This document shows, piece after piece, positions 1 to 45,400 of a stretch of DNA of 64,000 nt (its first letter is position 1; each line of letters starts with the position of its first letter). The notes beneath the pieces are model-generated. The model saw nothing but the letters and a program-made list of their open reading frames with translations. It was not told where the DNA came from and did not search any database. A program made the position numbers and the translations under genes. The stretch is taken from NCBI GenBank assembly GCA_037379345.1, contig CM074523.1, positions 30,953,678 to 31,017,677 of the forward strand. Reading direction: 5' to 3'. Origin of the DNA: Perna viridis. Its lineage: Eukaryota.

Positions 1-1680
1 ACTTCAGGTTTGACAGATATTTCAACTTCAGTCTTTTCATGTGGTTGTTCTGATTCCGAAGTTGTGATTTCAACTGTTTCCTCAACAGTGACTGGAGTCT
101 CCTCAGCAGGAACCTCAGTTGGTTTTTGCTCCTCAACTTCAGGTTTGACAGATATTTCAACTTCAGTCTTTACAGATGGTTGTTCGGATACTTCTGTTGT
201 GATTTCAACTGTTTCCTCAACAGTGATTGGAGTCTCCTCAGTGGGAACTTCAGCTGGTTTTTGCTCCTCCACTTCAGGTTTGACAGATATTTCAACTTCA
301 GTCTTTATAGATGGTTTTTCAGATACTTCTGTTCTGATTTCAACTGTTTCTTCAACAGTGACTGGAGTCTTTTCAGTGGGAACTTCAGCTGGTTTTTGCT
401 CCTCAACATCAGGTTTGACTGATATTTTAACTTCAGTCTTTTCAGTTGGTTGTTCTGATAATTCAGTTGTGATTTCAAGAGTTTGCTCAACAGTGATTGG
501 AGTCTCCTCAGTGGGAACTTCAGCTGGTTTTTGCTCCTCAACTTTGGGTTTGATAGATATTTCAACTTCAGTCTTTTCATGTGGTTGTTCCGAAACCTCA
601 GTTGTGATTTCAACTGTCTCCTCAACAGTGACTGGAGTCTCCTCAGTGGGAACTTCAGCTGGTTTTTGCTCCTCAATATTAGCTCTGACAGCTATTTCCA
701 CTTCAGTCTTTTCAGTTGGTTGTTCAGATACTTCAGTTGTGATTTCAACTGTTTCCTCAACAGTGATTGGAGTCTCCTCAGTGGGAACTTCAGCTGGTTT
801 TTGCTCCTCAACTTTAGGTTTGACAGATATTTCAACTTCAGTCTTTTCATGTGGTTGTTCAGATTCCTCAGTTGTGATTTCAACTGTTTCCTCAACAGTG
901 ATTGGAGTCTCCTCAGTGGGAACTTCAGCTGGTTTTTGCTCCTCAATATCAGCTCTGACTGATATTTCAACTTCAGTCTTTTCAGTTGGTTGTTCAGATA
1001 CTTCAGCTGTGATTTCAACTGTTTCCTCAACAGTGATTGGAGTCTCCTCAGTGGGAACTTCAGCTGGTTTTTGCTCCTCAACTTCAGGTTTGACAGATAT
1101 TTCAACTTCAGTCTTTTCATGTGGTTGTTCTGATTCCGAAGTTGTGATTTCAACTGTTTCCTCAACAGTGACTGGAGTCTCCTCAGCAGGAACCTCAGTT
1201 GGTTTTTGCTCCTCAACTTCAGGTTTGACAGATATTTCAACTTCAGTCTTTACAGATGGTTGTTCGGATACTTCTGTTGTGATTTCAACTGTTTCCTCAA
1301 CAGTGATTGGAGTCTCCTCAGTGGGAACTTCAGCTGGTTTTTGCTCCTCCACTTCAGGTTTGACAGATATTTCAACTTCAGTCTTTACAGATGGTTTTTC
1401 AGATACTTCTGTTCTGATTTCAACTGTTTCTTCAACAGTGACTGGAGTCTTTTCAGTGGGAACTTCAGCTGGTTTTTGCTCCTCAACATCAGGTTTGACT
1501 GATATTTTAACTTCAGTCTTTTCAGTTGGTTGTTCTGATAATTCAGTTGTGATTTCAAGAGTTTGCTCAACAGTGATTGGAGTCTCCTCAGTGGGAACTT
1601 CAGCTGGTTTTTGCTCCTCAACTTCAGGTTTGACAGATATTTCAACTTCAGTCTTTTCACTTGGTTGTTCTGATTTGGCA
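1..1680 (-). repeat. Coding tandem repeat, 120-bp (40-aa) unit, ~14 copies, with 1080-bp higher-order period
   Basis: Unit KTEVEISVKPEVEEQKPAEVPTEETPITVEETVEITTEVSEQP; 1-540 nearly identical to 1081-1620. Confidence 0.95.
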
Positions 1681-4600
1681 ATAGAAAATTCAACTGTCTC
1701 TTCAAATGTTTCAGTTGTATCTAAACCTGGCACTTCAGCTGGTATATTGTCAGTTACTGATGAAACAACTGTTGTTTCCACGACAGTTTCCTGTTTTAGT
1801 TGAATAAATTCTTCTGGTTTTGTTTCTGGGACCTCCTCTTCTGAAACTCTTTCGTCTTCTACTTTTACAACAGATAACTTCCTATCTTCGCTGGATGGTG
1901 TTTCTGCTGGTTGTTGTACTGTTTCTTCTGCAATCTGTGTAGCAATGGAGTCATCAGTCATGACAGATTCCATTATTTCTTTAGTATATTCTTCAGCATA
2001 TTTTTCAATCACTGAAGTTGATATATCTTCAGTTGTTTCTTCCGGAGTCTCCTCTGATTGTTCTTCAGTTTTCACAGGTGTTTCTTCTTCAGAGATAACT
2101 AATTCAGTGACTTTTTTCACTTCCTCCTCTTGTGGTGCTTCTTCTACTATCTCTTGAATATATTTTTCTGTTTCTTCAATTTGAAGCTCATTTTCAACAA
2201 TTTGTACTATTTTCTTTTCTTCAGTCAATACAGATTCCAAGATCTCTTTTGTGATTTCCTCAGCATATTTATCAACAACAGTGACAGATATTTCCTCAGT
2301 TGATTGATCTTCAATTACAAGTTCTACCTCAGTGGTTGAAGGTTTTTGGTCTTCAACTGTTTCTCCAAATGGTTGATCTTTTATGACTTCTGGAAGATCA
2401 GTAATTATTTCAGTAACCTTTTCAGTCTCTTTTATTTCGACCTCAGAAGGCATTTCCTCCTCTGTTGCTACTTCGGCTGTAGATGTCACAGTTTCAATTT
2501 CCTCAGAAACTGTTTCAGTTGTTTCAACTTGAATTTCACCAACTCCGTCAGAAGGTGTGACAACTTCCTCTGGCATCAATTCAGATGGAAGTTCTTCTGT
2601 CTTCGTTAGTTTGGTTTCAAATGAAACAACATCTTCCTCTGAAGGTACAACTTCTATAGTTTCAGTGATATCTTCTGTGATTTCTGATACCTTTCCTTCT
2701 GTAATAGGTGCTGAAGTTGGCTGATCCTTTTCAACAGTGATTGTCTCTCTTAATTCTTCAACCACTTCCTGTTTAGGTTGAACAACTTCACGTTCCGGAA
2801 TATCTTCTTGTTCAGTTTCTGCTGTTTCAATTTCAGTCACTGTTGTAGGTTTAATATCAACAGAGACTGACTCCTGAACTTGTTCTGGTACTTCATCTGA
2901 TGAGGCTTCATCTTCTTTGGTTTCTGGAACTTGTTTAACTGATTCTGTTTCAGGTACTTGTTCCTCAACAACTTGGGTTGGTTTAATATCCTTAGAAATC
3001 TGTACAACCATACCAACTGTGGTGGTTTCTGTAGGTTTCTCTTCCACAGTTATCATCTCTTTGTATGTTTCTGCAAGGGTGTCATCCAGGACTGTCTCAA
3101 TCTGACTAAAATCTTCAGGAATAATTTCCTTTTGAGCCTCAATAGTTGGTCTTGTTTCTTCAACTGTTTCCTCAGCTGGAGCAGCAGATTCTGTCACAGT
3201 TTCAGTCTCCACTGGAAACTCGTATAGCTGCAGAGTTTCTTGCTCTGAAATAACAACCTCTTCAGATGGCATCGGAACCTCATGCTTTTCATCGACTTCC
3301 GGAGTCTCAGTGACCTCCGTAATCTGTACCTCAGTTTTTGGTTGACCTACAGTTATTTTGAACTCAATTTCCTCTTGTGTGGTAGTTGCAGGCTTGATCT
3401 CAATTGTTTCAGTAAATTTCTCAGTTATCTCTTCAGAAATTTGTGTATCCTGCTGAGTTGTAATTTCAACATTTTCCTTGAACTTTTCATCAGAAACAAC
3501 TTCTACAATGTCTTTGAATGTAGCTGTAGTGACTTCAGTTGGCACTTTTATATCTATTTCAACCTCCTCAGTTGGTTTCTTGTCAATTTCGACTGACTTT
3601 TTAAATATTTCTTTTTCATCAGAGGGCTGTGGAACAACCTCAATTTCCTCCTTAAAGGTTGGTACTTCTTCAGTTTGTTCAAACTTTTCAACCTCAATCT
3701 GATGTCTGAACAAGACTTCTGTTTCTTCGTGATGACCTGAAAATTCTTCACTTAGTTGAGCAGTTTCCTCAACAGGCATTTCTTTGCTAACCTGAATAGT
3801 GTCCCTGAAGGTAACTTCCTCCTCCTGTGTAGGAGCAACAATCTCACTCTCCGCCTCCTCTGACTGTTTGGGAGTCAGTTCAATACTTTCAGTGTATTTA
3901 GTATCTTCAGAAGTTTCAATTGTCTTATCTATTGATGTTGTGATTTCAATACTATCTGTGTAGTGCTCATCTTTAGGTCTAGTGAATTGTATCTCCACAG
4001 CAGATGGCTGGTCAATGCCTATTGTCTCAACGAATGTCTCATCAGAAACTGTTTCCGGGACTTTAGAGACTTCAATAGTCTCTCTATAAGTTTCAGTAGG
4101 TTTACCACTTGGAGTATCAAAGTCATACTCCACGTCATCCGGTTGCTCTTGTGTGGCAGGTTTTTTAAATGTCTTAGTTTCATCAATTTCTGGTAAATGT
4201 TCCTCGACCTTTTGCCCTTCAGTTTGATCTTCTAACACCTGGAATTCGGTAACAACCTCTGTAGGTTGTTCATGTTGAACCTCTACAGTTTCTGTTATTT
4301 TAGCTTCCTCGATGATTTCCTCTTCAGTTTTCTCAGGTGCTTCAAATTCAATTTCTACTATCTCTGGTTTCTTAAGTTTAGGTGCTATTTCAACAGTTTC
4401 CTTGAACTTAGTCTCTTCACTTAATTGTTCCGGTAACTCTTCTGCAATTTTGGTGACTAGAATTGTCTCACTAACAGTTTCGTCTGTAATAAGCTGAGGA
4501 GCTTGGATTTCAACTTCAACTTGTTCTGGTTGCTTTGGTGTAATTTCAAAAGTAGTTTCGTGGACCTCTGGTTTCTCCTCTGTCACTTCAACAGTTTCTG

Positions 4601-6421
4601 TGGTTGTTTCTTCTGGTTTTGGAGCTTCGAATTCGATTTCAACAAACTCTGGTTTTTGTTCTTCAGTACTTTCTGTTGGTTTAGGAGCTTCAATTTCAAT
4701 TTCAACAACATCTGGCTTTTGTTCCTTAGTTATTTCCACAGTTTCTTTAAAAGTCTCAATTGGTTTAGGAGCTTCAAATTCGATTTCAACAATTTCTGGT
4801 TTTTGCTCTTTTGTTATTTCAATTGTTTCTTTAAATTTTGTTTCCTCTGTTACTTCTTCAGGAACCTCCTCAAATTCCTTGGTAATCTTGATGGTTTCTC
4901 TGAATGTTTCCTCTGTAATTTGTTGAGGAGCTGCTACCTCAGTTTCAACAATTTCACGTTGCACTTGAGAGAATTCAGCTCTAGTTTCATGAACATCAGT
5001 TTGTTCTTCTATCACTTCTATGCTTTCTTTAAATGTCACTGAAGGTTTTTTAGCTGTCTCAAATTCAATTTCAACAACTTCTGGCTTTTGTTTTTTAGCT
5101 ATTTCAACTGTTTCCTTGAAAGTCTCTGTTTGTTTGGGAGCTTCAAATTCAATATCAACAATTTCTGTTTTTTGCTCTCTTGTTTCTTTAAACTTTGTTT
5201 TCTCTGTGACTTCTTCTGGAACTTCCTCATATTCCTTCATGATCTCAATGGTTTCTCTGAATGTTTCCTCTGTAACTTTTTGAGGAGCTTCCATTTCGAT
5301 TTCGAGAGTCTCTGGTTGTTGTTGAACTATTTCAGCTGTTGTTTCATGGACCTCTGGTTTTCCCTCTTGAGTAATCTCAATGGTTTCTTTGAAAGTTTCT
5401 GTCCGTTTTGGAGCTTCAAAGTCAATTTCAACCAATTCTGGTTTTTCCTCTTGAGTAATCTCAATGGTTTCTTTGAAAATTTCTGTTGGTTTTGGAGCTT
5501 CTAGGTCAATTTCAACCTCTTCTGGTTTTTCCTCTGGTGCAATTTCAATCGATTCTTTGAATTTTGTTTCTTCATTGATAACTTCAGGTACTTCCTCAGT
5601 GACTTTAGTAACTTCAATAGTTTCTCTAAATACCTCCTCAGTTACCTGCTGAGGGCCTTCTGTTTGAACCCCAATAACAACAGGCTGTTTAGGTGATACC
5701 TCAATAGTCTCAGAGTATTTGGTGTCCTCTTTTATTTCTTCAGGAATTTCTTCTTCCAGTACTTCAACAATTTCAGTTGTTTCCTCTGCTGTTTCAGTCA
5801 CCTTTGAAGTAACTTCTACAATTTTCTTATCAACTGGAACCTGAAACTCTATTTCAACGGTTTCTGATTTCTTTGGACTGATTTCAACTGATTCCTGATA
5901 AGTTGTCTCTTCTTTGATATCTTCTGGTATTTCTTCAGTAACTTCAACCGTTTCATGAGATTTGGTTATCTCCACAGTTTCTTTGAAAGTTTCTCCTGTC
6001 TTTGGAACTTCAAATGAAATCTCAACTACTTCCCGTTTTCCAGGAGTGACTTCGATAGACTTTGTGAATTTCATCTCTTCAGAGATCTCTGGTATTTCTT
6101 CGGTTTCTTTGGAAACAGTTATTGTTTCTCTAAACGTTTCTTCAGTAATTTCAACAGGAGCAGGGGATTCTACCTCTGCATCAATTGGTTTCTTAGGTGC
6201 AACTTCAAGTGAAGTTTTATGAGGTTTCTCTTCCTCTGATGAAACCTCTTCTACCTCCTTAAGGACATCAAGTGTTGCCCATTTGTCCTCATCTGCTAAT
6301 TCCTGTACATCAATGGGTTTAGGTTTTGATTCAGTTGGTGATACTAATTTAGCAGTTTCTATGATTTCTTCAACGTCTTCAAATTTTTCAGGAACACCTT
6401 CAGAAGAAGCTTCACTACATG
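1..6421 (-). CDS. Giant exon (at least 6421 nt, open at window edge), E/T/V/P/K-rich repeats
   Basis: ttttcag acceptor at 6422, phase 1; same frame at both ends; absent from the ORF track, consistent with no stop inside the window. Confidence 0.9.
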
Positions 6422-9400
6422 CTGAAAAAGTGAAGGATCAAAAGGTCACTCACCTTGAACTTTGAACTTACTTGTGACCTTGATATGTCCTTGTCAACTG
6501 TCCTTGTTGTAATTCCTTAAGATGAGACATATACAATTATTCAATGATCTGCACAATTTTTGGATTCTCAAGATCAATCAGGTGCTAACTGCTGGAACCC
6601 CCGTATACGATCCCTCTACACTGGTGAAAAATGTTTTTTTCGCATTAAATCTTGATTTTTCACAAAACCTGTCTCAAAATGCTTTTTTTCTTGCCTGGCC
6701 TATAATTTTATTCACCCCTTTCCAAAACCAGAAATCCTGGATCCACCCCTATCTACATAATTTTTGCAGTCAAAATTTCCATGTATTTCTTCTTTATAAT
6801 CAGAAGGTATTTTTAAATAAACTGTATAAAATTTCAGATATTCATTGATTGTTACATGAAACCTTCCATCATCAGAGTAATACTTGACAATTTGATGAAC
6901 ACTTTATATTTTAAGTAAATCCAAATTTAATAATAGGAGAAGTTTGAATAAAAATGACAAGAATACAGTACAAAATTCTTCATATTAATTTATAAATAAA
7001 GATCTAATTTTAACAAAAGTTTTCAAAAACAAAACATGACGTTGCATATCCCCACTTGTACAGGAAGTTGATATCGAATATCAGCCAAAATGACTTACAA
7101 TGTATGCTCCATCTGTCTAAACCCATACACACAACAGATCGGCAATACACCAAATAATTATGGTGAAATCTGGACAATGGATAGGCAGAGCGACTCCAAT
7201 ATAACAGTCACTCTTCATTTTAAGTTCAAACCTAAATTGTACAGAACATTGAATAGACTTTCAATCCGTTCTATCAATGCCAACTGAGAGAGTTCTCTAG
7301 GAACAATCAAGGAGGCAAGGAAAAGTCAGGATGCTACAAAGGTCAAAAGGTCAAGGACATGTATGGAGATCATATCAAGGTCAATGGTAAGGATGAATGC
7401 AGAAAAGTGATTCGATTTGTGTTGATGTTTTGTGTGAAAGTGTGCTTTTCATAGGAGTCTCACTCATTCAAACAAGACAAAGTGTGTTACATGCAAAACG
7501 TTACCTATGAAAGTTTTTGATGTTTCAAAATTTTAGCCATTGCCAAATATTTCATAAGCCTATCAGTATTTGTATTTAAAGTGGTGCCAGTCAAACTCAT
7601 ATGGCTTTAAGGAAGTAGACCTAGGGTACTCTTGAAATCAGTGATATGTTTGTATCATATTCAATATCACCAACACCAATCAAGCTTACTTGAAACAGAA
7701 TGAAATCAATTCAAGTTACTTTGATGCTTACATGAGATTGAAGTCAAATGCTGAATACAAACGTTCCAATGATTTTTTAAGAGTTGTGTCCCTTACCCGA
7801 GGTCTTCCTCCTTAAAATTATGCATGGAATATAGTTATTTTTATCATAAGATGAATTTTTTATTCATTCTTATATAGGATAATGAAGCATTATATACAGA
7901 GAAAAATATATTTTAACAAAAATCAGTTGAAAACCATGATAAATTAAAAATAGCAAATCCAAATTTGCTTTAGTGTAGCAAACTTTTGACTTTTTCTCAA
8001 CTTGTTTTACTGTTGTATCCAAATTGCTCATGCTTATATATACTGATCACGCTAATAAGATACTAATCTTTTGTAAAACAGGATTGTTTCTTTAAGGTAT
8101 TGGATTTGGACTGTTTGTGTCATGGATGTCAGATGCAAACTCTGGCCCTGTATTGAAAATTGCAGAACATTTTAAAGTTTAAATAGGCCAATCAAATTGT
8201 CTTGTGCTTCTCAAACCTTCCCTTTTCTCCAATGAGTGTGTCCTATTTACAAAAAATTAGCTTTAAAAGCCTTATTTTCTCTATTTAACCATGGTAATTG
8301 AAACACATGCTAATTTTCAAATCAGGACCATAGTACAAATTCTATTGAACTTACGTAGTACTGTGATATATCCTGTTGAGCGAACCTTTCCGACATCATT
8401 GGCCACCTCAATCCAATATTCTCCTTCATCCTCAGGGAATATCTCTCTGAAAGTGAGGACACTTTGTCGCTCCGTGGTGACAATGTCGATACCATCCGTG
8501 GGAGTAATCTCATCACCATCCAGGTACCAAGTCACCGTTAGTGGAGCACGACCAGTGTACTCCACAACTAATTTAACAAGCTTGTTCTCGGTTTCTGACA
8601 AATCCTCAAGGGGGATGGTGAATATTGGAGCTTCTAGCTCTAGAGTGGTTACAACTGTTTCTTCTGGTTGCTCCTCAATAGTTATCTCCTCTTTGGTGAC
8701 TTCCTGTGGTTTAACTTCAATAGTTATCTCTTCTTTGGTGACTTCCTGTGGTGTTACTTCAATAGTTATCTCCTCTTTTGTCACTTCCTGTGCAACTGTT
8801 TCCTTGGTAACTGGTTGTGGTGTTATTTCTACACATATCTCCTGGGTTGTTACCTCAGTTGGCTTAGTTTCTTCTGATTTTTCAGGCTGGAGTTCTGTGA
8901 TTTGAACTTCAGTGGCAGACACTTCAGAAACAGTGACTAATGATTCCTCCTTTGGAATATCAGTAGTTGGCTGTGTTTCCTCAGTTGAAACTTCTGTTGG
9001 TTTTGATTCGACCTGAACTATTGTTTCTACTTCAGAAATTTGAGATTGTTGTGTTTCAATTTCAACTGTAACTTTGGATTCAGCTGGTTTTTCATTTTCT
9101 GGCGTGGTGTCTTCAGTTGGAACATCAGAAGGCTGTGTTTCCTCTGGCTTAGAAATCTCAACTTCAATGATCTGGGGTTGCTCTGGTGTTTCTTCAGCAA
9201 TAGTCACTGTAGATTCAACTGGTATCTCAACTTCTGGTTTAGTCTCCTCAATTGGAACTTCAGAGGGCTGTGTTTCTTCTGGCTTAGAAATCTCAACTTC
9301 AGTGATCTGGGGTTGCTCAGGTGTTTCTTCAGCAATAGTCACTGTAGATTCAGCTGGTATCTCAACTTCTGGTTTAGTCTCCTCAATTGGAACTTCAGAG

Positions 9401-12400
9401 GGCTGTGTTTCTTCTGGCTTAGAAATCTCAACTTCAGTAATCTGGGGTTGCTCTGGTATTTCTTCAGCAATAGCCATGGTAGACTCAGTAGGTTTCTGAA
9501 CCTCAGGTTTAGTCTCCTCAATTTGAACTTCAGAAGGCTGTGTTTCCTCTGGCTTAGAAATCTCAACTTCAGTGATCTGTGGTTGTTCTTGTGTTTCTTC
9601 AACAGCAACTGTAGATTCGACTGGTTTCTCAACTTCTGATTTCATATCTTGTACTGGTACTTCTGAAGGTTTTGTCTCTTCTTTCACTGTGACTTCAACT
9701 ACTGAGACTTCTGGATGTTGTTGTGTCTCAATTTCTACAGTGACCTTAGACTCAGTTGGCTTCTGAACTTCTGGTTTTGATTGCTCAGTAGGAACTTCAG
9801 AAGGAATAGTTTCCTCAGGCTTGGTTTCATGGAACTCAGTAGCTTCTGATGTTACTTCCTGATGTACTTCAGTAATGAATTCATGGATGTCAGTGGAAAT
9901 TGTTTCGTCTCCTTTCTGCTCTGGAGAAACCTGAAAAAGGAGAAATACTTCTTTAATTAAGTACCATTTAAATCCTTTGTTTATGGAAAAATAAAGATAT
10001 ACAAAATAGATTGATTGATTGATTGATTGTGATTTTATGGCAGATATTTCATGTTTTTCAAGACGAGAGAATTAGTTTTATACAACAGATCTTGCTTTGT
10101 ATTTATTTAATAATATAACCTGAGTTTTATTGTGCACATAAGTACCAATACCCATAGGAAAGCTTGTTCCCAATCAGGAAAAAGAGTAATCAAGGAAACC
10201 AAGGTTATAGCGGTAATCAAAGAGTAATCAAAGGAACCAAGGTTATAGCGGTAATCAAAAGAATATAATCCAGGGATAAAGACCAGACATGGAAAACAGA
10301 AATACACAACAAAGAACATAAAGTAACTCAAATCATACATACAAAGTAACAAAAGTAAATAAGCAACTCGGACTCCACTAAAAAATGGGAGCGTGGACCA
10401 GGTGCACCGGTAGGGTAAGCGTCCTCTGCTTTTCTAGAAAAAATACTCTTATTTGGAGCCATCCAGCTGTCACACTAACTGAGTCCAAGATCACTCAAAC
10501 TTGAGGCAAGCATGAAATCACAAAGTGGTCTTTTAAAATTGAATTTCATTTTAACTGGTATCATAAAAATATTCTGAAGCAGTCAATTGCTCATGTAACA
10601 TTTTTATTGCCATATCAATGAAATATAAACAAAAGCCATTTGTCTTATAATTGTCGGGACTGAGAAAGAGTAATCAAGGGAACCAAGGTTATAGCAGTAA
10701 TCAAATCAATGTAATTCAGGGACAAAGACCAGATATGGAAAAAAGACATACACAACAAAGAACATAAAGTAACTAAAATCATACATACAAAATAACAAAA
10801 GCAAATGAGCAACTCAGATTCCACTAAAAACTGGGAGCATGGACCAGGTGTACCGGTAGGGTAAGCGTCCTCTGCTTTTCTAGAAACACCCACTAAGTTG
10901 CTCATAAAAACTCAAGTCCGGGGTAGGCGAAAGAGGAAAAGAAAAACTATGACATGTTGAACAAATCAGGTTTCTTGGGGCAGATGATGACCATAAAACT
11001 TTTGTAGTGATGACTTCAATCTTGTAGCAACATAACCCGGTTTCAGAAGCCTATTTGTTAGAATTCCAGCATGATACAAAAAAATCTGCGTAATTTCGAC
11101 AAGCTCTGGCATAACATATGAGTTGTGATATGAACACTCCATATGCAGTTGCTGAAGGGATGTAGCCACAGAAAAAAGTAAACTCACTAAAATCACATTC
11201 TTTAAAAATAATAAAGAGTAAAAAGAAATATGTCAAGTCTTCTCTCTACCTATTATTGGTTCACATGAGCCTGAGAATCCTACAGTTTTAAATGACCTTA
11301 GTGGTTCTTTTGTTATCTCCTTGGTATCAATGGAGAACTGTACAAAATTGAACTATCGTAAGCAATCTCATAAAGTAAATACCCCGTCTCAAATGAAGTT
11401 AAATACATAACTCCTTAAGTCAATAACCTCCTTTTGGAGTCCCCCAGCAGTAGCTATATTTATAAATGATGCCCAACCTTCCTACTGAATTTCATCAGAA
11501 TCTCTTGACTGGTTAAGAATTTTTTTTTTTTACAAAAAAATATGGATTGTCAGATGAAAGGTCAGACAACAGACAGACAAATGGTATGACTCCTGTATTC
11601 CCCCAAACTTTACTTGCAGGAGGTATAACAGATTCCTTTAATACACCACAAGCACCTTGCATGGATATCAAATTTTTTTTAACTCACTCATGGAAATCAT
11701 ATTACTAAACATACCTCTTCAGGTGAGAGTTCTGATGAAGGAATAGACTGTATTTCCTCTGGACTCTCCTGGAGTTCCATTTCAGCTGCTCTCTTCACCT
11801 CATCAATGTCAACTTCCATTCCAGTAGACATCTTCTTAATCTCTTCCATAAACTCTTTGGCAATGTTGGCACCCTCATCCGAGTCACTTGGTGGGCGGGG
11901 AGAGGGAGTGTCCATGGAAGACATGAAGGAGTCAGATGCTTCCTCTGTGTCAGGCACATACTCATAGGCTGCAAAAAGATTGAGTTACTGATTACAGTCA
12001 TTGTTACATGTCATTCAGAACAATACTGTTTGATTTATTGAACAGACTCTTTTGGTAACTAGTTCAAAATGCTTTGCCAGATTTTTAAGTACTTCTATGT
12101 ACATGAATCAGGCAAAATGTGTACAAGTAGTGGCACATGAAGAAAAAACACAGATATTTTATCCAAGTATTTATACCTCATGACTTTAAAAAATAACCAC
12201 TAAAGTGTTTGAGAATTTAAGCCATTTTAAGATATTGAAAGGTCAATTTTAGTTTAAATGCACTATTGAAAATTTTTTTCCACAATTTTTCCCTATATAT
12301 CTACATCACAGATGCTTCAGATAATTAAAATATATAAACTGTACAGAAATATACAGCATAAGGTACATTTTTTGTTTTTAGTACAAATAAGATAATACTG

Positions 12401-33400: not shown

Positions 33401-36400
33401 CCCTCTCAAAAATGTTTTAGTTTTAGTTTTCACTACATGTTTTAACACAAATTGAAGTAATTTATTATGATTTAAAGCTGAAAATTCAAATAAGATAGGA
33501 AAAATTGCTGCAAATATAGCTAAATCAACCTTTCTGACACAGGCACATGAGCTGGATATTATTTAATTTTTCATGAAACATTAAGAAACTCCAGTGGAGA
33601 CTTTATGGAGTATCATACCTTTAGGAGCTTGTCTGAGTTTAGATCTCCAGTCATCCTTTGGTACAACAGTCAAGTTAGTGTAAGCCTCAGCTTCACCCTC
33701 AGAGTTCTTGGTAACGACTCTGACCTGTCCTGTCTCATACTCTCTCGTCTTCAGAATTGTCATGTAGTGCATCATACCATCGTAGCGCACCTTGTGTCTG
33801 GATCCCTGTAATATAATACGAACATCAGTAACCAGCAAAGACCAAAATATGCCAGAAATAAGTGCATGCAATTTTTTTTTTTTAAATTGCTATCAAACAA
33901 ACATAATCATTTTCCTGACTTCCTGGACGCAGAGGCCTGAATATGAATTCATTGTACAATTTTAATTATTCTAATTACATTTATGCAAAAAAAAGCAATA
34001 AAGAAATAAACACCTTTAAACATCATCCTATTTCTAATCAAATTTTAGATTTTATACTTACAGCAACAATTTGGGTTTCGTTGACCCACCATGTGACACG
34101 TGGACGTGGGTAGCCACTGACTTTGACCATGAATTTAGCCTGATCACCTTCCCCTACCTCGACTGGTTCTGGTTTGAGGTCAATGGAAGGAGGATACCTC
34201 CTCTTCTTTGGCTCTGTCATTTCCTGTTCATCAAGAATCATTGGACTGAAAAGAAAAAAAATATGCTTAGTGTTTATTTTCTGGCAATTGTTATACATTT
34301 TCTAATTTCTCTCCATTCTATATATCAAAACACATTTCAAACTACTTTTGCAACATCTACTCCTTTAAAATCTACAGGATTCCCATTTTCAAGGTTTAAG
34401 AAACCATAGATGAGAGAATTCTTAAGTCAGACAGAGATATCACAAAACAGGTGCAGATTCATAGATTTTTAAAAGAGGAAATTTTAAGGACAATATTAGC
34501 CCTTTTTGCCCAAATAAAGCACAAAATGGAATACTTTTTCTAACAAAGAGGGGTTCAACTGTTGGAAATCTTGCCCCCTGAATCCATCAAAACATTCTGT
34601 TTTTCCTTCAAATCTTTTTCTTACCTTCTCCAATGTTCTTCCATCTCCTGAAGTTTGATGGCTCCTTCTCCTGGTAACTGTGTATCAGATATTACAGCTC
34701 TCTTTCCTAAAATAAAATATAAGATCTTCTGTATGAAGTTTCTTTCCCCTAACTACAATACCTACCTTTTGTACCATATATTTGATATAATTTTAAAAGA
34801 TTTATTATTCCACTATATTTCATAGACATTTACATGTACAAACAAACAATTACATTTGATACTGTTCTACATGTATTTCCAATTGCACTTCTTTAATCAA
34901 TTTTTTTTTCTATTTGCATTTCTTCATGTTGTGTGTGTAAAGATCTGTATGCCCTAACCTTTAACCAAACTCACCTTTGACCTTGACCACACTGGTAACC
35001 TGGTCCTCCCCATACTGGTTGGTAGCTTTGCATGTGTAGGTTCCTGAATCTTCAGGGAACACATACTTGATATCGAGGACAACAAAGCCAAAGTCATATA
35101 AAGGCTTGAATCTGTGACCTAAAAAAATACAATGAACTTAATTGCATGTTTAATGAAAGCTGCAATAAAAGTAACATTACTATTCACAAGTACTGCCAAC
35201 TTGTAGTTACATGTAGATTCCCTATTCACAAGTACTGCCAACTTGTAGTTACATGTAGATTCCCTATTCACAAGTACTGCCAACTTGTAGTTACATGTAG
35301 CGATTCCCTATACACACAAGTACTGCTAACTTGTAGTTACATGTAGATTCCCTATTCACAAGTACTGCCAACTTGTAGTTACAAGTAGAGATTCCCTATT
35401 CACAAGTACTGCTAACTTGTATTTAAATGTAAAGATTCCCTATTCACAAGTACTGCCTACTTGTAGTTACATGTAGAGATTCCCTATTCACAAGTACTGC
35501 TTACTTGTAGTTACATGTAGAGATTCCCTATACACACAAGTACTGCCAACTTGTAGTTACATGTAGAGATTCCCTATTCACAAGTACTGCCAACAAATTT
35601 GTATGGTACTAACCATGATGTAATGGCTGCCCATCTTTGAACCATTCCACTTTCATGGTGGGATCTCCAAATGGTGCCAACTTGCACTCAAAGTGGGCTT
35701 TGTCATTTTCTTTGAGGTTTGTCAGGTCCTTTAATGCAGTCTTAAATTTGGGAGGACGAGCATGTTCCTTGTTGTACAAGTCCTCCTCAGCTGGTTGTTC
35801 ACCTTCACGACGAATGAATTCACGGACTGCGCTCTCTCTGTCCAAGTCCCTGAAAATTAAATAGAAATGATTGTTACAAAGATTCAGTACTGCTATTTTC
35901 AATCTTTTGCCCCCTTTTTCCCTAATAAACAAAAGAATGTAGGAATTAAACCAATGAAGATAATGTTTTATCAAGTACATCTCGCTTTCTTTTTCTTTTG
36001 AGGAGAGATGATCCCAAAGACACTAAAAAATCTGCTACCATAAAACTGAAAACTTTTTTAAAAAAGAACTGAAATTTAAATTTTTTTATTCACACACAAA
36101 TTTTGTTGACATGATTTCAGATATCAACACATGCAATAGCCAGACATGCATTAAATTGGTTAAGGAACAAATTGAGAAGGAACTCATCTGCCATTTCTAT
36201 GAATTACTGGTAAAATTGAACAGACAAGATTTACCAGAACACCAGGAACAGTAAAAAATAATCTCATATAAATGACTATTTTTTTATAAATAGACAAGAA
36301 AAAGGTTCAAAAGAACAAGATTCGGAAAATAAGTCAAGAATATTTAATCTGACATTATCTAACAGTATGATATTTAAAAGGTCATCTCCAACATCACTAG

Positions 36401-39400
36401 AAAGGTCAAGGTCAAGGTAACATGACATTACATGATGGAGGAAAAGTTCAGGTCACATAGTGAAATAGGAATATGGGTTACTTCAAATCAGACAGATTCT
36501 GACATTGTTTAGAAGTACATGTTCAGAATGAAATGAACTATGATTTTTCTGGGAGGATGCAAAAGTATTGATCAAATAGTCAAGGTAAAATGATGACCTT
36601 TGACCTATTGGTGGAATAATAGGAACACACTGTCCAAACCTGATGTGTAACTGTTTAATGGCTGGTGTTCTTATTCTAATCCGTCTCCTATTAAATGAAA
36701 ATCATGAGTTGATCTCAAGATAAAAACAAATAAAAACATACCAATTCATGTATTTATTGGACAGGTGATTCAAAAAGAGATATAGATGTGCAAAACATTA
36801 GAAAAATATAGAAATATTCAAAAAATATTGATGAGTGAAAATGATCAATAAATAAAAAGCAAATTAGTCATAAAACATTCAAAACATCACATGCTAAAAT
36901 AGAAATATAGTAACAAACAAATGAACAAATTTGAGGTTTATTTTTTATTTTATCAATGCATTGCATGTCAAAAACTGGTATCCATTGGTAAGAGATAACA
37001 AGAAGAGTTACATTGCAATGGTAACAGTGGTAACAAGTCATGGTAACCAATGGTAACAAGAAATGGTAACCAATGGTAACCAATTTTAACAAGACATGTT
37101 ACCATAAAAAGGTAACCAATGGTAACAAGACAAATTAAATCACACAGGTTTTTTTTTATATTCAAACAATGATTAGAAAAGCAACCTTGGGAACACAAGT
37201 TTTTTCTTAATCCTGAAATATATAAAGCCATGATTAATTGCAGACAAGAACATTAGTAAACAAGAACACATCTTAAATCGGTTTCATCATAAAACATAAT
37301 ATTCCTTTTATTTCACAGACAAGGAACTTGCATTCATAAAGCAAGAAAGTTCATAATCATCTCTGGCTGAAAATCACACACTCATTAAAACTTCAATACT
37401 TTGCATGTAACATACCAGACATAAACTGGTATAAAGCCAAGCAAGGAACCAAACACAATCTGGTTTACAGTCCTGAACAAAGCCAAACTGAAACCAGTCA
37501 CACAATCTAACCTTGACTGTTCTAGCCTAATTACAGCCTCACTGACGGTGTCAGTACTAGGTTTCCATGGTGATGCAAACACAGCTTCCAACATGATAAA
37601 ATCATCATGAGGATATGGACTCTGGACAATGGATTGTGTCCGTACTGGAATAGTCAGTTTTAGATCTTCCACTGGGATTACTAATTTAGAGGGCACAGTT
37701 GGGAACTTCTCATGAATGGTCCTTGTTGTGATATCAGTTTCATGGACACCTATGCCTGTTGGTTGGTCAGCAGGCAATGTTTTGGTTACAGGTTCTGAGG
37801 ATTTTGTTGGTTTTGGGGCAGGTATTGGCTTGGTTATTTTTTTCTCTGCCAAAACCATTCCTTTTTGTAAAGGCCCTGGGAATGATTGTATTGTTTTCTC
37901 TGTTTTGACTGTCACTTTCTTCTCCTTTTCTTCTAATGGACTGCCTTTTCCTGGTACTGTGACAGTAGTCTGGTAAGTCTGATCAATTGGCTGACCAGGA
38001 CTGCCGTAAGCTGTGACAGTAGTAGTCTTATCTATTTCAGTTTCTCTTACCCACGGTGGATAATCTTGGGGCTTATGTTCATCACCAACTGTTGTTTTAA
38101 CAGTTGTTTCAAATTTCTTGGGAGCAGATTTCCAAACCTTTTTTTCAGCAGTAACAGTGGTCTTTTTATCCACCTCTGTGTCTTTCATCCATGGTGGCAT
38201 AGCAACCTGTGGCTTTTTGGTTGGCACTGGCTTTTTAGGTGCCTCTGGTTTTTTCTTCACTGTTATTGAAGTTTGGTAAGTCTCGTCACTTGGTTGAGGC
38301 ACCTGGCGACCCTCAGCTGTGACTGTTGTTGTGTGTTCGCATTCTGTTTTTTTCATCCATGGTGGATAGTCTAATTTGGGTTGTTTCATCTTGTTGTCAG
38401 GTTTTCTTGGTACAGTCATTGATGTTTCATATTTTTTGTCCGGTTGTTTTTTAGGTGGTTTAGCTTTTCTCATTGAGTCAAGCTCATCCTCAGATACCAG
38501 ACGCAGGTGCCCAGATTCAGTTTCTGAGGCGTAATTAATTTCTTGGACTGGTCCGACTGGCTCTATCTCATACCTGAAGTAAAATCTGTTTGTATAATAC
38601 CAGTAACATGTACGAGTGCTATAAAAATGTTAGTTTCATTAGCACTTTGCAGTTAATTGCAAATATCCATTTTTTATAAAGTTTCACCTATACTGTTGTC
38701 AACACTGCAATTTTATACCAATAGCCAAAATTTGATATGTTGAATAGAAAATGTAATATTTTAATGCATTTTGAAAATCATACCCTTATAGAACTTTTTC
38801 ATGATAGAACCAAAAAATACAGTGACACCTGTCTAATCTGAACACTTTTTAGTTGTTTTTTCTTTTTTCCAGTTTAGTCACAAAACTAGGGACCAACTTT
38901 TCATGATGTCTGTTTTCGAAAGCTGACTGGTTTATTCAGGGTATAGTTAAGACAGGTTTAACTGTAAAAGAAGGGGAAATGAGATTTGATATATATGAAT
39001 AAAATAAAAATTTAAGGATTTTTCAAAGCAAAGTTCAGAAAGCAGCAGCATTGCAATTCTAAGCAAATGGGAGAAGCAGCCTTCCCAGAATGCAAAGCAT
39101 ATAATCAAAGGGGAATAACCTTGGAGGACTGCCTGGTTCTACTGGTTTCTTTCCAGGCTTCAGAGGTTTTACACCAGTCTGATCCGGTTTCTTATCTACT
39201 AATACTGATGTTTCATAGGTCTGGTCTGGTTGTTTAGGGACATGTCTGCCCTCTGTTGTATACTTTGTGGTAGTTGTTTCTTCATAGTCAGTTTCTCTGA
39301 CCCATGGAGTTAGTCCTTCCTCAGGCTGTTTCCTCAGATCTGATGGTTTCACACCAACAGTAATGGAGGTTTCATCAGTCTCATCCATTGTTTGTTCAGG

Positions 39401-42400
39401 ACCTTGACCCCTCTGTTGTTCAATAGAGGTCATGGTCTTATCTACAAGTTTGGCCTTAACCCAAGGTGGGAAGGTCAACTGTGGGGGACCAGTTTCATCA
39501 TCTGGTTTTGTGTCTACAGACATGGATGTCTCAAATGTCTTGTCTGATGGCTGAGGTATTTGGCGACCTTCAGCAGTCATTGTAGTGTTTTGTTCCCACT
39601 GTGTCTCCCTGGTCCATGGTGGATAAAATTGTTCTGGTTGTGGTATGTCCTTCTCAACCTTTTTGTCAACTGAAATTCTGGTTTCATATTTTTGAACAGT
39701 TGTCGTAGGTTTATCTGGAGAGTGTGGTTTCCTTTCTTCCTCAGGAACGAGACGTAGATATCCTGATTCAGTTTCTGAGGCATATGTTATTTGCTGGACA
39801 GGTCCTTCTTCTTCTATTTCATATCTAAAGTTAAAAAGTTTACTCATTCAAGGGATACTTACTTCATACCGAGTGTAATGTGTAATTAATAAGAAGTATT
39901 TGTATTACATCATTTTATTTATGAAATCAGATTCCTTTCAAAAGAGAAAAAAATTGTTTTCAGAACATAATCTTTAAGGTAAACTTTTTTTTTTATAATA
40001 AAGAAGATTAAAATACTATCTTGATTTTCATATCATTTGCATTATCATAAAATGTTTATGCCTATAAAATTTTCAAAGGGGAATAACCTTGGAGGACTGC
40101 CTGGTTCTACTGGTTTCTTTCCAGGCTTCAGAGGTTTTACACCAGTCTGATCTGGTGTCTTATCTACTAATACTGATGTTTCATAGGTCTGGTCTGGTTG
40201 TTTAGGGACATGTCTGCCCTCTGTTGTATACTTTGTGGTAGTTGTGTCTTCATAGTCAGTTTCTCTGACCCATGGAGTTAGTCCTTCCTCAGGCTGTTTC
40301 CTCAGATCTGATGGTTTCACACCAACAGTAATGGAGGTTTCATCAGTCTCATCCAGTGGTTGTTCAGGACCTTGACCCCTCTGTTGTTCAATAGAGGTCA
40401 TGGTCTTATCTACAAGTTTGGCCTTAACCCAAGGTGGGAAGGTCAACTGTGGGGGACCAGTTTCATCATCTGGTTTTGTGTCTACAGATATGGATGTCTC
40501 AAATGTCTGGTCTGATGGCTGAGGAATTTGGCGACCTTCAGCAGTCATTGTAGTTTTTTGTTCCCACTGTGTCTCCCTGGTCCATGGTGGATAAAATTGT
40601 TCTGGTTGTGGTATGTCCTTCTCAACCTTTTTGTCAACTGAAATTCTGGTTTCATATTTTTTAACAGTTTTTGGTGGTTTATCTGTAGAACTTGGTCTCC
40701 TATCTTCCTCTGGGACAAGACGTAAATATCCTGATTCAGTTTCAGAGGCATATGTTATCTCCTGAACTGGTCCTTCTTCTTCTATTTCATATCTATAGCA
40801 AAATTAATTGTTTTAAATGTATTGATATGCCATTATCTTGGTACTTGCGTACACTTCCTTGATATGTCATTATCTTGATACTTGCAAACATTTCATTTTA
40901 CACATTTATCAGAAGATTTTTTTATTTCTTTATTTAAAATCATAATAATTTTATCTAAATAATATTAATTTATTAATTTATCATTTCTTATCTAAATTCA
41001 TTGCAATTTAAAGATAGAAGATTTTTCACATTTATAGTAAATCTATGGCAATAACCTAGGAGGACTGCCAGGTTGAACTGGTGGTTTCCTGTCTGGCTTC
41101 TTTTCTTCCGATGTCACAGATGTTGTTTGTTGCCAATCTGTTTCCTTCACCCAGGGTGGATATTGGGAACCAGGCTGCTGTTTTGTCTCAACTGGCTTTC
41201 TGGCCACTAAAACTGATGACTCGTAAATCTGATCTGGTTGTTTAGGGACATGTCTGCCCTCAGTTGTGAATTCTGTGGTAGTTCTTTCTTCATATTCAGT
41301 TTCCCTGACCCATGGAGGTAGTCCTTCATCTGGCTGTTTCTTCAAGTCTGAGGGTTTCACACTAATTGTCATAGACGTCTCATGTGTTTCATCTACAGGT
41401 CTTTCTGGTGTTCTTCTTTCTTCAGTCACTGTAGTTGTCTGTGTGACCTCAGTGTCCTTGACCCATGGTGGGAATGTCACTTTTGGTTTCTTATCTTTAG
41501 TTGGTTGCTTACTTACAATATTTGTGTAAGATGGCTTTTCTGGACTTCTCCTCTCCTCTACCACTGTTCTTGTTTGTGTGACCTCAGTGCCCTTGGCCCA
41601 GGGTGGGAATGACCCTTTAGCTTTTTTCTTTTCAGCTTCATCTGGCTTCAGTGGCTTTTGACCTTTCTGTTGTTCAACAGCCTTATCTACAAGCTTTGCC
41701 TTGACCCAAGGTGGAAAGGTCAACTGTGGGGGACCAGTCTCATCATCTGTCACTGTTGTTTCATACACCTGATCAGGAGGACCCTCTCCTGTAATAGTTG
41801 TTTTCTTTTCATATTCAGTTTCTGTTACCCAAGGTAGATAACTGTCTTTTGATTTTACAGGCTTGTCTTCTGTTTTTTTGTTTACTGTTACTTCAGATAT
41901 GTAGGTCTGGTCTGGTTTTGGCTGTTGTCCTGTTGATGACTTCTTGGGTGTGTCCAGTTCATCTTCTGATACAAAGCGTAGATATCCAGATTCAGTTTCA
42001 GAAGCATAGTTGATCTCCTGTACTGGACCTACAGGTTCTATTTGATAGCTGTAGAAAATCATAATAATGGTTCTACACTTATGAAGTCAAGTTTTCTTTT
42101 AAACCTAAAATTTCAAGTTTTGCTAATCACCAAAATTAATTTTTTTTTATTAACTAAGATATTATTTATTTTCCTTATCATGAAAAACTGATTGTCAAAC
42201 ATTAATTTTTTTGAAGTAGGAATATGAAATTTAATATTTTTTTTTAAAGTTATATTACAACTAAAATATTTATCTTTTCCTAAATAGTTATATCTAAACT
42301 TATATAAGTAAATCATGGTTTCAATATAAAGATAAATCAATGTCAATAACCTTGGTGGGCTTCCAGGTTTTACTGGTGCTTTCTGAGTTGATTTCTTCGA

Positions 42401-45400
42401 TGGCTGTTTCTGTTTTGAAACTGGTTTCCTTTCCACTGAAACTGATGTTTCATAAATCTGATCTGGTTGTTTAGGGACATGTCTGCCCTCAGTTGTATAT
42501 TCTGTAGTAGTTCTTTCTTCATATTCAGTTTCCCTGACCCATGGAGGTAATCCTTCATCTGGCTGTTTCTTCAGGTCTGAGGGTTTCACACTAATTGTCA
42601 TAGAGGTCTCATGTGTTTCATCTACAGGTCTTTCTGGTGTTTTTCTTTCTTCAGTCACTGTAGTTGTCTGTGTGACCTCAGTGTCCTTGACCCATGGTGG
42701 GAATGTCACTTTTGGTTTCTTATCTTTAGGTGGTTGCTTAGAGACAGGTTGCTTATATACAGCAAATTTGTCCATTGGCTTTTCTGGTGTTTTCCTTTCT
42801 TCAGTCACTGTAGTCCTTTGTGCAACCTCAGCGTCCTTGACCCAAGGTGGGAAGGTCACTTTTGGCTCTTTTGTATCCTTTGTAGGTTGTTTAGCAACAG
42901 AAACAGATTTTTTATACATTATATCATAAGGTCCTTTCAAATCCTTTGTTATTGATGTTGTTTGTTTTTCAGTTGTGTCCTTGACCCAGGGAAGGGATTC
43001 ATATTCAGGTTTATAGTCTGGTTGACCTTGACCTTGAACAACCATTGTGGTCTCATAGGTCTGATCAACAGGCCTTTCCCCATACTGTTGACCAGTAATG
43101 GTAACAGAATGGGTAACAGTTGTATCCTGAACCCAGCCAGAATAAGCACCCTGAATGGGTTGTCTCCCTTGGTCTTCTGGTGAAATTATTGACACTTCAT
43201 AGGTTTTATCAAAGGGTTTTGGACCTTTCACCTCTTTGGTAATGACAGTTCTATTATCAATTTCTGTGTCCCATGATAAAGGTTTATCCTGTTTAGGTTT
43301 TTGTTTGTTGTCTTCTGGTTTTTTTGTTACAGACACAGAAGTTTGGTAAGTTTTGTCTTCTGTAGTTTCTGGTGGCTTTTGTTCACCAGTGACAGTTACT
43401 GACTGGTCAACTGTTGTTTCCCTAGTAACCAACCAAGGAGGATAACTCTTTTTGCTAAAATTGGAGTATACATGGTGAGCAAATCTATCTACTGGTGAAA
43501 TGTAATGAAATCATTTGCCATTTATTTAGTAGTTAAAGCCATGAAATTAAAATATAGTTTATTTTTTAATAAATAAACATGCTATCTTGACTAAAATAAA
43601 ATCCAGAATATGTTTGTAAAGGGAGGTAATCCTATGGGAGATGATTCCCATTCACTGTTCCTTAATTTCAATTTTGGTAATGGCAAGTAATTTCATTGCT
43701 TTAGGAAGCAAAGGGAAACAAATATCAGATATTAAACAAAATTTTTAAAGGTAAGAAAAACTTATATGATTTCTAACTACGGTAAACAGTGTACATGCCT
43801 TGCAAAATGAAAAATAGATTGACTTAAATTAAACTAAATTGATAGTAACTATTCTAAAAATTATCTCAAAACATGCTTAAGGAGGTAGACCTAAGGTAAG
43901 GGACATAACTCTTGATTTCAGTGATACGTTTGTATCATATTCAATTTCACTTAAGCTTTTCAAGCTTTCCACTGAAACTGAATGAAATCAGTCAGTTACT
44001 TTGATGCTTACATGAGATTAATGTAAAATGCTAATACAAACATTCCAATGATTAGTAAGAGTCATCTCCCTTACCCTAGGTCTATCTCATTAAAATAAAC
44101 AGAAAAAAGACCAAATTATCCTCTATTAACACTGACAATGAAGGTAACAGTTTTCCTAATTGAAAAGAAATATTACAACAAAGGGACATAACCACAACAA
44201 AGGGAAATAACTCAGACCTTGGTACACTCTCCTTGGGTGGAGATGGCTTCTTGGCTTTCTTTTTCTCTCTTGGTGACAGTGGTTTGTTATACCTATTATA
44301 TTAGTTAGAGAAAAGAAGAAAGTAAGATACTAACTACAATATATACACAGAGATTTAATATATCAACTCATCTTATGCCACTACATTCAAACACAGTAAT
44401 GATGATAAAAAATTATGTGTTAAGTCAAAAACTATTTTCTAATTATTAAGTATATATTGAAAAAAGACTTTTCTAACTCTGTTTTTCATGCAAAAAGACT
44501 AATGAGTTCTAACAACATTTTCCTTATTTAAGAATATTTTATGACAATCAAAACAGTGTTCAAACCAATCTAAACTTTAAATGTTTGTATCTAGGGAGAC
44601 AATTCTTTAAAAAAAGGGTAAGACAGGGGAGGTAATTCACCTGAATTGTTCATATTTGGTCTGCAGTGAGATAGGAATCTGTGGTTGATATGGAGGCTTT
44701 AGATCATCATATCTGAAAAGTTTTACAATTCTAAGACTGTTTGTCCTGATAAAATAATTATTGAAACCTATAACACATTTAGGCCTTAAAATCAGAAGTA
44801 ATGACTTTCATACTGCAAAATGGTCTTAGATTTCACTTTAGACCATACTAGAAAGGGTGTAAAAAAATTTATTCTTAAAGCAAGACAGAAAATGACCTGA
44901 TACAGAAAACTAATCCAGACAAATACCCATCATACAGTCTACAAAGAATAATTAAATTAAAACTTATATTCAACAAAACATAAGAATTAACTAGAATATA
45001 TCAGTGAGTTCTATTTCATTTTCTATCCATGCCTTGAAAAAATATTGTGTTTTTTAATCCTATTCATTATCCATGCCAGTCTATGTTTTAGACTATGCCT
45101 ACCTTCCAGCCTCATCATCAGTAGAATGAACAAGCCTTAGTGTGGCCTTCTCGGTGTCAGAGACATAATGTATTTCCTGGACTGGACCAGTTTCCTGGAT
45201 CTCATAATGACTGTAAAGCATTATGGGAAGGTCAACACAAAGTACATTGAGTTATATTTAGTTTAAGGCAGAAATATCTTTTTTTCTAAGACAAGGATTT
45301 TTCTGCATGTAAAAGATTTTAAAGAAAATTCTAAGATATCTCTGCAGATTAAATGAAAAAAAATCACAACTGTCAAAATTTTCATTCATGTATTTTGTCT

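Follow-up and report, generated by a model that had tools for sequence, protein, structure and literature searches.

Here, we describe two nested pairs of complementary segments within a 1933-nt intron of a titin/sallimus-like gene of Perna viridis, located in a window of 64,000 nucleotides (the whole stretch of DNA analysed; all positions are window positions). These segments are predicted to fold the pre-mRNA such that approximately 925 nt would be looped out. The looped-out stretch holds a latent acceptor (7333) with its stop codon, along with two fragments of repeats and two hexamers resembling poly(A) signals. The loop would bring the upstream intron near the acceptor of a giant PEVK-like exon, to which the upstream donor would splice by default. 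We tentatively favour the reading that this is a real nested stem, which holds down 7333 and the repeat-borne poly(A) words and thereby favours the giant exon by default. The stem would then serve as a standing guard and a bridge, not as a regulated switch, and we infer that it forms in vivo, is maintained by selection and has this guard function. The features involved are the following.

From about 68,400 to beyond -99,000, minus strand: host gene, titin/sallimus-like, with a run of I-set Ig domains.
8355-9930, minus strand: upstream exon, ending in an I-set Ig domain (approximately number 27 of the gene), with the phase-1 donor GTAAGT at 8354.
8354-6422, minus strand: intron of 1933 nt.
7605-7817, no strand assigned: TTAA-flanked, high-copy miniature inverted-repeat element, upstream of the stem structure and outside it.
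7352-7391, minus strand: 5' arm of predicted helix 1 (5 + 13 + 3 + 8 bp).
7326-7351, minus strand: latent acceptor between the helices, with first exon base 7333 and an in-frame TGA at 7328-7326.
7234-7255, minus strand: 5' arm of predicted helix 2; its end is 2 nt away from a possible but weak donor further on (GTTTGA, 7231).
7044-7130, no strand assigned: dispersed-repeat fragment within the loop, found at 40 other places among the 40 of 427 candidates that were scored.
6926-6931, minus strand: ATTAAA hexamer, by sequence a candidate poly(A) signal.
6622-6758, no strand assigned: second dispersed repeat within the loop, containing the AATAAA at 6712-6707.
6538-6559, minus strand: 3' arm of predicted helix 2 (20 Watson-Crick pairs, one G-U pair and one U-U mismatch).
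6467-6506, minus strand: 3' arm of predicted helix 1, 45-85 nt upstream of the giant-exon acceptor, with three CAAGG(T/A)CA words.
1-6421, minus strand: giant E/V/K/P/T-rich (PEVK-like) exon with its acceptor at 6421; the 8355-6421 joint has GT..AG ends.

The host gene shows the features of the titin/sallimus (connectin) family, namely a long I-set Ig array with interspersed giant low-complexity exons rich in E, V, K and P. The I-set assignment comes from a Pfam match, Ig domains were mapped over 168 kb of the gene, and for one Ig piece titin gave the best solved-structure matches. The 5' boundary of the upstream exon (9930) is a prediction, and the open frame of the giant exon comprises 3498 codons in all, extending approximately 4 kb beyond the window edge. 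Orthologous proteins exist among protein sequences; scans for the orthologous exon returned just other Ig exons or bacterial matches. The relatives of this exon (P0037 and P0155 with 80-81% identity, P0150 with approximately 50%) stop at the same donor position; they are gene calls on genomic contigs and are uninformative on isoforms. Elsewhere in the gene, five long non-Ig exons are located between Ig13 and Ig14 (37385-43510, minus strand), four of them with near-identical starts (YEIE..GPVQ..YASETESG), and these exons are duplicated units, perhaps optional ones. Additionally, an intron-less metagenome contig (L044) encodes a distant counterpart of the Ig25-Ig26 region, and the gene layout is therefore old. 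At the other end of the upstream exon, 10477-10495 pairs with 9739-9757 (minus strand) in a 19-bp intron-exon helix that encloses the predicted 9930 acceptor and has two G-U pairs, both of them possible on the sense strand only.

Helix 1 was proposed in a first-pass annotation of the sequence, every coordinate of which was right when checked. Its three pairings (7371-7383 with 6475-6487, 7387-7391 with 6467-6471 and 7352-7360 with 6485-6493) are exact reverse complements. The last of these, put forward as an extension of the 13-bp core, is complementary as claimed but does not form together with the core: the two are mutually exclusive because 6485-6487 is common to both, and in the predicted fold the partner of 7359-7352 is instead the other CAAGGACA copy, at 6499-6506. 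Within the 5' arm lie one TTGAC that resembles a branch point and a portion of the pyrimidine tract belonging to the 7333 site. On its own, the perfect 13-bp repeat is weak and within chance, being reached in 61 of 500 shuffles of the 1933-nt intron and 15 of 500 shuffles of the 1012-nt part, with the same repeat length found in 14 of 58 real windows. The duplex of the 100 nt before each acceptor has an energy of -50.5 kcal/mol, reached by none of 1000 shuffles and equalled by 3 of 3000 random real pairs. In a looser 70-nt test, an equally good partner was found for 7 of 42 further segments of the region that carry two TGACC words, and the same was true of 4 of 28 look-alike sites elsewhere. 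Among 61 acceptor candidates, 7333 had the second-strongest partner for its preceding 70 nt, the top-ranked candidate being a mis-picked site within an inverted-repeat element. These duplex tests flatter helix 1, as 7333 was chosen after the repeat had been seen and the arms consist of over-used words.

Nested in helix 1 is a second helix, absent from the first-pass annotation, in which 7255-7234 pairs with 6559-6538 at 21 of 22 positions, exceeding the best helix of all 150 shuffles. It is more stable on the sense strand (-26.2 kcal/mol, antisense -20.6), whereas for helix 1 the antisense strand gives the more stable pairing (-41.1, sense -36.9), and there is thus no consistent strand signal. 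A folding check kept both helices, which are co-linear, in the fold of the whole intron (approximately 2 kb), with predicted pair probabilities of 0.98-0.99 for helix 1 and a mean of 0.90 for helix 2. Non-family helices as strong as helix 2 occur at approximately 8 other places in 166 kb of the gene, or about one per 20 kb, as counted with a filter that gave 8 rows, two of which are one structure, and that dropped one long hairpin; approximately one in ten introns of such size would therefore have one. Nested co-linear helix pairs were found four times in the same 166 kb. Three of them are copies of one recurring inverted-repeat element and the 7391-6467 structure is the fourth, the sole non-family one. 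Covariance models of Rfam gave no matches at E up to 1 in 6400-8400. Two other structures were discarded, namely a competing local hairpin over the distal branch region (6482-6475 with 6449-6442), which is present in a 120-nt fold, has a probability of approximately 0 in longer context and was thus rejected as part of a switch, and a stem over a latent AG at 8147 (8334-8312 with 8161-8139), which falls to 0.03 in the whole-intron fold.

The latent site itself is as the first-pass annotation had described it. The minus strand at 7333 reads TGACCTTTTGACCTTTGTAG followed, across the candidate splice junction, by CATCCTGA; splicing from the phase-1 donor (8355/8354) yields a translation ending in YITVLPS and a stop; and ATTAAA (6931-6926) and AATAAA (6712-6707) are present on the same strand. 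The predicted fold places the site between the two helices, in a side branch where it is only partly paired, with the AG (7335-7334) and the nearest branch-point-like A (7351) mostly unpaired. Its acceptor score is 2.0 against a median of 2.5 (home-made matrix, 59 automatically picked acceptors, some of them wrong), which ranks it fourth in the intron after 6421, 8147 and 7169, the two better-scoring latent AG sites being located outside (8147) and inside (7169) the loop. Other latent AG sites of the intron yield short stop-ended tails equally easily. At 8147 (minus strand) the tail would have 18 residues, with AATAAA at 7864, and no joint to this site was seen in the contigs. The 7333 site was rejected as a recursive splice site, since CA and not GT comes after its AG. 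The poly(A) hexamers are no more frequent than expected by chance (at least two in 632 of 1000 shuffles), and the AATAAA at 6712-6707 is not exactly common to four aligned copies of the 6622-6758 repeat. None of the three dispersed repeats in the intron (7605-7817, 7044-7130 and 6622-6758) overlaps the helix arms. No annotated relative ending in the PS-stop tail was found in protein searches limited to 203-2000, 1002-2860 and 2061-5000 residues, and the close matches of a further protein search were gene calls on genomic contigs reading into the intron.

Transcript evidence was taken from sequencing runs, of which 20 contain the stretch and none is recorded as RNA; 8 were examined, under 7 study codes with two apparently representing one data set. 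These runs (guessed or unlabelled RNA) skip the intron at GT..AG, and on that ground they were treated as transcripts. In each of the 8, one contig runs from 8355 directly into 6421, with GT..AG at the intron ends and a depth between 8.7 and 330; there is no loose end at 8355 among the contigs shown, and no contig covers 7122-7591. The junction from 8355 to 7333, expected for the proposed terminal exon, appeared in none of the 8 runs, as seen in contigs, which drop rare forms, from unspecified tissues; a rare or tissue-restricted 7333 isoform may be compatible with such contigs. The first-pass proposal that a duplex loops out the stop exon and switches between a short and a long isoform is supported as far as the predicted fold is concerned; the switch itself has no support in the contigs of the 8 runs, where the distal join is the only one. 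This distal-only joining fits a guard stem and would equally be expected if the stems were inert. Nine further low-share runs, with word shares of 0.28-0.30 against an exon-only expectation of 0.29, were excluded from the joint count. Additionally, short contig pieces with 100% identity to 6581-6892 were observed at depths of 3.5-4.6 in four of the 8 runs (the first four). These are more likely unspliced RNA or DNA carry-over, since two of them extend 90-110 nt beyond the end expected behind the AATAAA, the pieces lie next to A-rich tracts and none came from the run of depth 330.

If real, the mechanism is of a known kind. The closest working parallel for a guard stem is the long-range stem in intron 4 of Drosophila Nmnat (Raker et al. 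2009, PMC2724269); in the available text of that paper, the stems of Nmnat and CG33298 hold back a proximal site, and its authors raise the possibility that cryptic sites of constitutive introns are silenced in this way. As in Nmnat, complementary intronic boxes of at least 9 nt enclose a proximal acceptor. Whereas Nmnat uses both acceptors, the distal join was found here in 8 of 8 runs and the proximal one in 0 of 8 (contigs, with rare forms dropped). A proximal exon with a used poly(A) site also belongs to the Nmnat type; the hexamers here are no more frequent than in shuffles, one of them belongs to a repeat, and contigs cannot reveal RNA ends. Further marks of that type are boxes kept across species with compensatory changes, and a splice choice that shifts on disruption and on compensatory rescue. 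Unlike Nmnat, the present intron has two nested helices, with 3' arms downstream of the hexamers and beside the distal branch region. The Drosophila CG33298 and Atrophin stems, according to the same text, likewise hold down a latent or unannotated splice site, which in CG33298 is used to a small degree; there the site is inside the stem, whereas here the AG would be in a side branch and the upstream tract alone would be paired. In the literature searched, mostly outside the subscription journals, there was no report of the stem structure or of bivalve titin splicing, and in the available part of PMC12198301 oyster and octopus appear in figure legends only.

Close behind the guard stem ranks coincidence combined with motif bias, which we consider somewhat unlikely and in which the arms of helix 1 are TGACCT/CAAGGTCA clusters, helix 2 pairs by chance and the AG at 7333 is cryptic and goes unused. 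Helix 1 is made of TGACCTTG/CAAGGTCA words that are over-represented in the genome: TGACCTTGA occurs 10 times in the window where 0.4 would be expected, and the 13-mer of helix 1 occurs 64 times in the genome, compared with 14 for a reversed control. The arms and their immediate surroundings hold 5 of the 20 CAAGG(T/A/C)CA words and one of the two DR1-type words of the window, and this local and genome-wide enrichment speaks for coincidence, as do the motif-matched controls that perform nearly as well, the frequency of helices of the grade of helix 2, the chance level of the hexamers and the fact that use of 7333 was unseen in the contigs of the 8 runs. Against it stand helix 2, in which no TGACCT/CAAGG-type words of helix 1 occur, the rarity of the duplex energy among random real pairs and the finding that no second non-family place in the 166 kb has two independent helices in such a nested register. 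The arm words are branch-point-like on RNA and possibly nuclear-receptor-like half sites (ERR/NR5A and DR1) at the DNA level. Ten of the 62 other 13-mer sites were inspected, and they have no flanks in common. An inverted pair of the 13-mer on contig C3 was set aside as unrelated, being part of a 3.3-kb perfect inverted duplication (C3:5687500-5695000, L095; arms of at least 3.2 kb, spacer of 934 nt), which is either a recent fold-back or an assembly artefact.

A related pattern concerns the acceptors of the gene. TGACCT is present within 60 nt of 3 of the 59 picked acceptors against a background of 1.8%, which are weak statistics; the three (16503, 6421 and -16078, the last beyond the window edge) all open low-complexity PEVK-like exons. 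A tandem TGACCTT ending in YAG has two matches in the genome, 7333 and 36396, in the same gene and on the same strand, with a pattern that was fitted to both of its matches. As a general acceptor signature it was rejected, given that 28 sites have another last base against the two matches, and the occurrence of two such rare tandem sites in one gene is notable. The second one is an acceptor-like site within 36364-36470 (minus strand) with the tandem TGACCTT before a TAG at 36397. Judging from the letters, 36396-36364 might form an in-frame exon of 33 nt and phase 2, with a weak donor, GTTAGA, at its end. AGGTCA-rich segments complementary to the 36396 site are located at 36593-36605, 190 nt upstream, and at approximately 34965-34996, at the end of the exon near 34970.

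An origin from a transposon, raised as an alternative in the first-pass annotation in the form of an old terminal-inverted-repeat remnant, is weakened because the genome searches below gave no relative of either arm. Searches of the 723-Mb genome with the arm regions, which skipped very common words, returned this locus alone, and degenerate patterns of the helices matched exactly at their own two arms and nowhere else, with one-mismatch matches elsewhere numbering 7 for helix 1 and 2 for helix 2. The lack of exact copies argues against a living transposon family, and an extinct element would be unlikely to retain 13 of 13 and 21 of 22 pairs. We regard it as unlikely that 7391-6467 (or 7255-6538) is an orphaned, decayed transposon of the inverted-repeat kind, in which case an old element with bipartite terminal repeats would have taken up two younger repeats at a later time. 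In favour of this reading, inverted-repeat elements account for the other three nested helix pairs of the gene, helix 2 starts and finishes with TA, although this is expected from any palindrome, and a TTAA-flanked repeat family of the genome has a TGACC-rich core with 12 bases common to helix 1. However, a profile of this TGACC-rich family gave no match on the arms, the searches above found no second copy, the arms of helix 1 and helix 2 do not align with each other, and no target-site duplication is visible around helix 1. The family itself was encountered at 15 of the 28 look-alike sites (within L108-L134) as a dispersed TTAA-flanked family having a TGACC-rich tandem core with small hairpins, and its ends resemble those of short inverted-repeat elements in the introns of the gene.

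A regulated switch, in which 7333 begins a terminal exon in an unsampled muscle type or stage and the opening or late formation of the stem selects a short Ig-rich isoform ending in PS, appears improbable. The acceptor is within the range of real acceptors, its phase is right and its first bases are the same as those of the distal acceptor; the 3' arms would be transcribed approximately 700-850 nt later, leaving a time window; and the exact low-depth pieces of 6581-6892 came from each of the first four runs. Early-stop short isoforms of the titin family are also described for fly and vertebrates (available parts of PMC11081514, PMC9886281 and PMC13649281). Against these points, the distal joint alone was recovered in the 8 runs even where contig depth reached 330, two of the pieces overrun the expected end and the deepest run lacks such pieces, a short tail with a stop would result from any latent AG of the intron, and the length-limited protein searches gave no annotated relative with the PS-stop tail.

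Kettin, the short isoform of Drosophila sallimus, resembles the present arrangement in having an Ig-rich front with long PEVK-type exons behind, and is described in the available parts of PMC11081514, PMC9886281 and PMC3207145 as a short Ig-only protein resulting from an early stop, with 35 Ig domains, constant spacers carrying two motifs and no PEVK; its use is linked there to Bruno 1, a protein, rather than to an RNA stem. The hypothetical product here would instead hold approximately 27 Ig domains and several long low-complexity exons, and the Kettin spacer motifs IXXXQH(P/E) and IQXLE have two matches, both in low-complexity exons, in a search that intron-split spacers can escape; the make-up of a Kettin-type short isoform is not found. 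Vertebrate titin Novex-3 is like the proposal in being an alternative last exon with a stop codon and a poly(A) signal ahead of the spring region, and according to the available part of PMC13649281 it adds more than 2000 residues and 6 Ig domains in 8-14% of transcripts, whereas two residues would be added here and the contigs of the 8 runs include no such transcript. The proposed product would parallel Kettin and Novex-3 in logic, not in build. Of similarly low probability is the extended version in which a two-helix clamp hides a real acceptor before a 10-kb spring exon, its opening in some muscle or larval stage gives a short, spring-less isoform, and the tandem TGACCTT, found also at 36396 with complementary AGGTCA partners close by, is a code specific to this gene that marks exons gated by structure.

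Very unlikely is a hidden poison cassette, a 102-nt stop-containing exon at 7333-7232 with its acceptor side and its 3' end each held by one helix, whose inclusion would lead to nonsense-mediated decay and thereby conceal the message from RNA data: between the end of helix 1 and the acceptor there are 19 nt, helix 2 stops 2 nt short of the possible 7231 donor and there is a consensus GTAAGT donor at 7098, but the 7231 donor (GTTTGA) is weak, the one at 7098 lies inside a repeat and no such joint was seen in the contigs of the 8 runs.

Short versus long isoforms of the titin family set muscle stiffness in flies and vertebrates, and the available parts of the papers above attribute the choice between isoforms to RNA-binding proteins. 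If the switch were true, an RNA fold would choose between a short and a giant titin, for which the literature searched contains no case. If the stem gates the giant spring exon, it would add cis-acting structural control to this choice and provide a compact test case in a mollusc. If the nested stem is a mere guard, it would represent one more intron fold that shields a long gene, in this case against a latent acceptor and against poly(A) words carried by repeats, a useful and unsurprising role.
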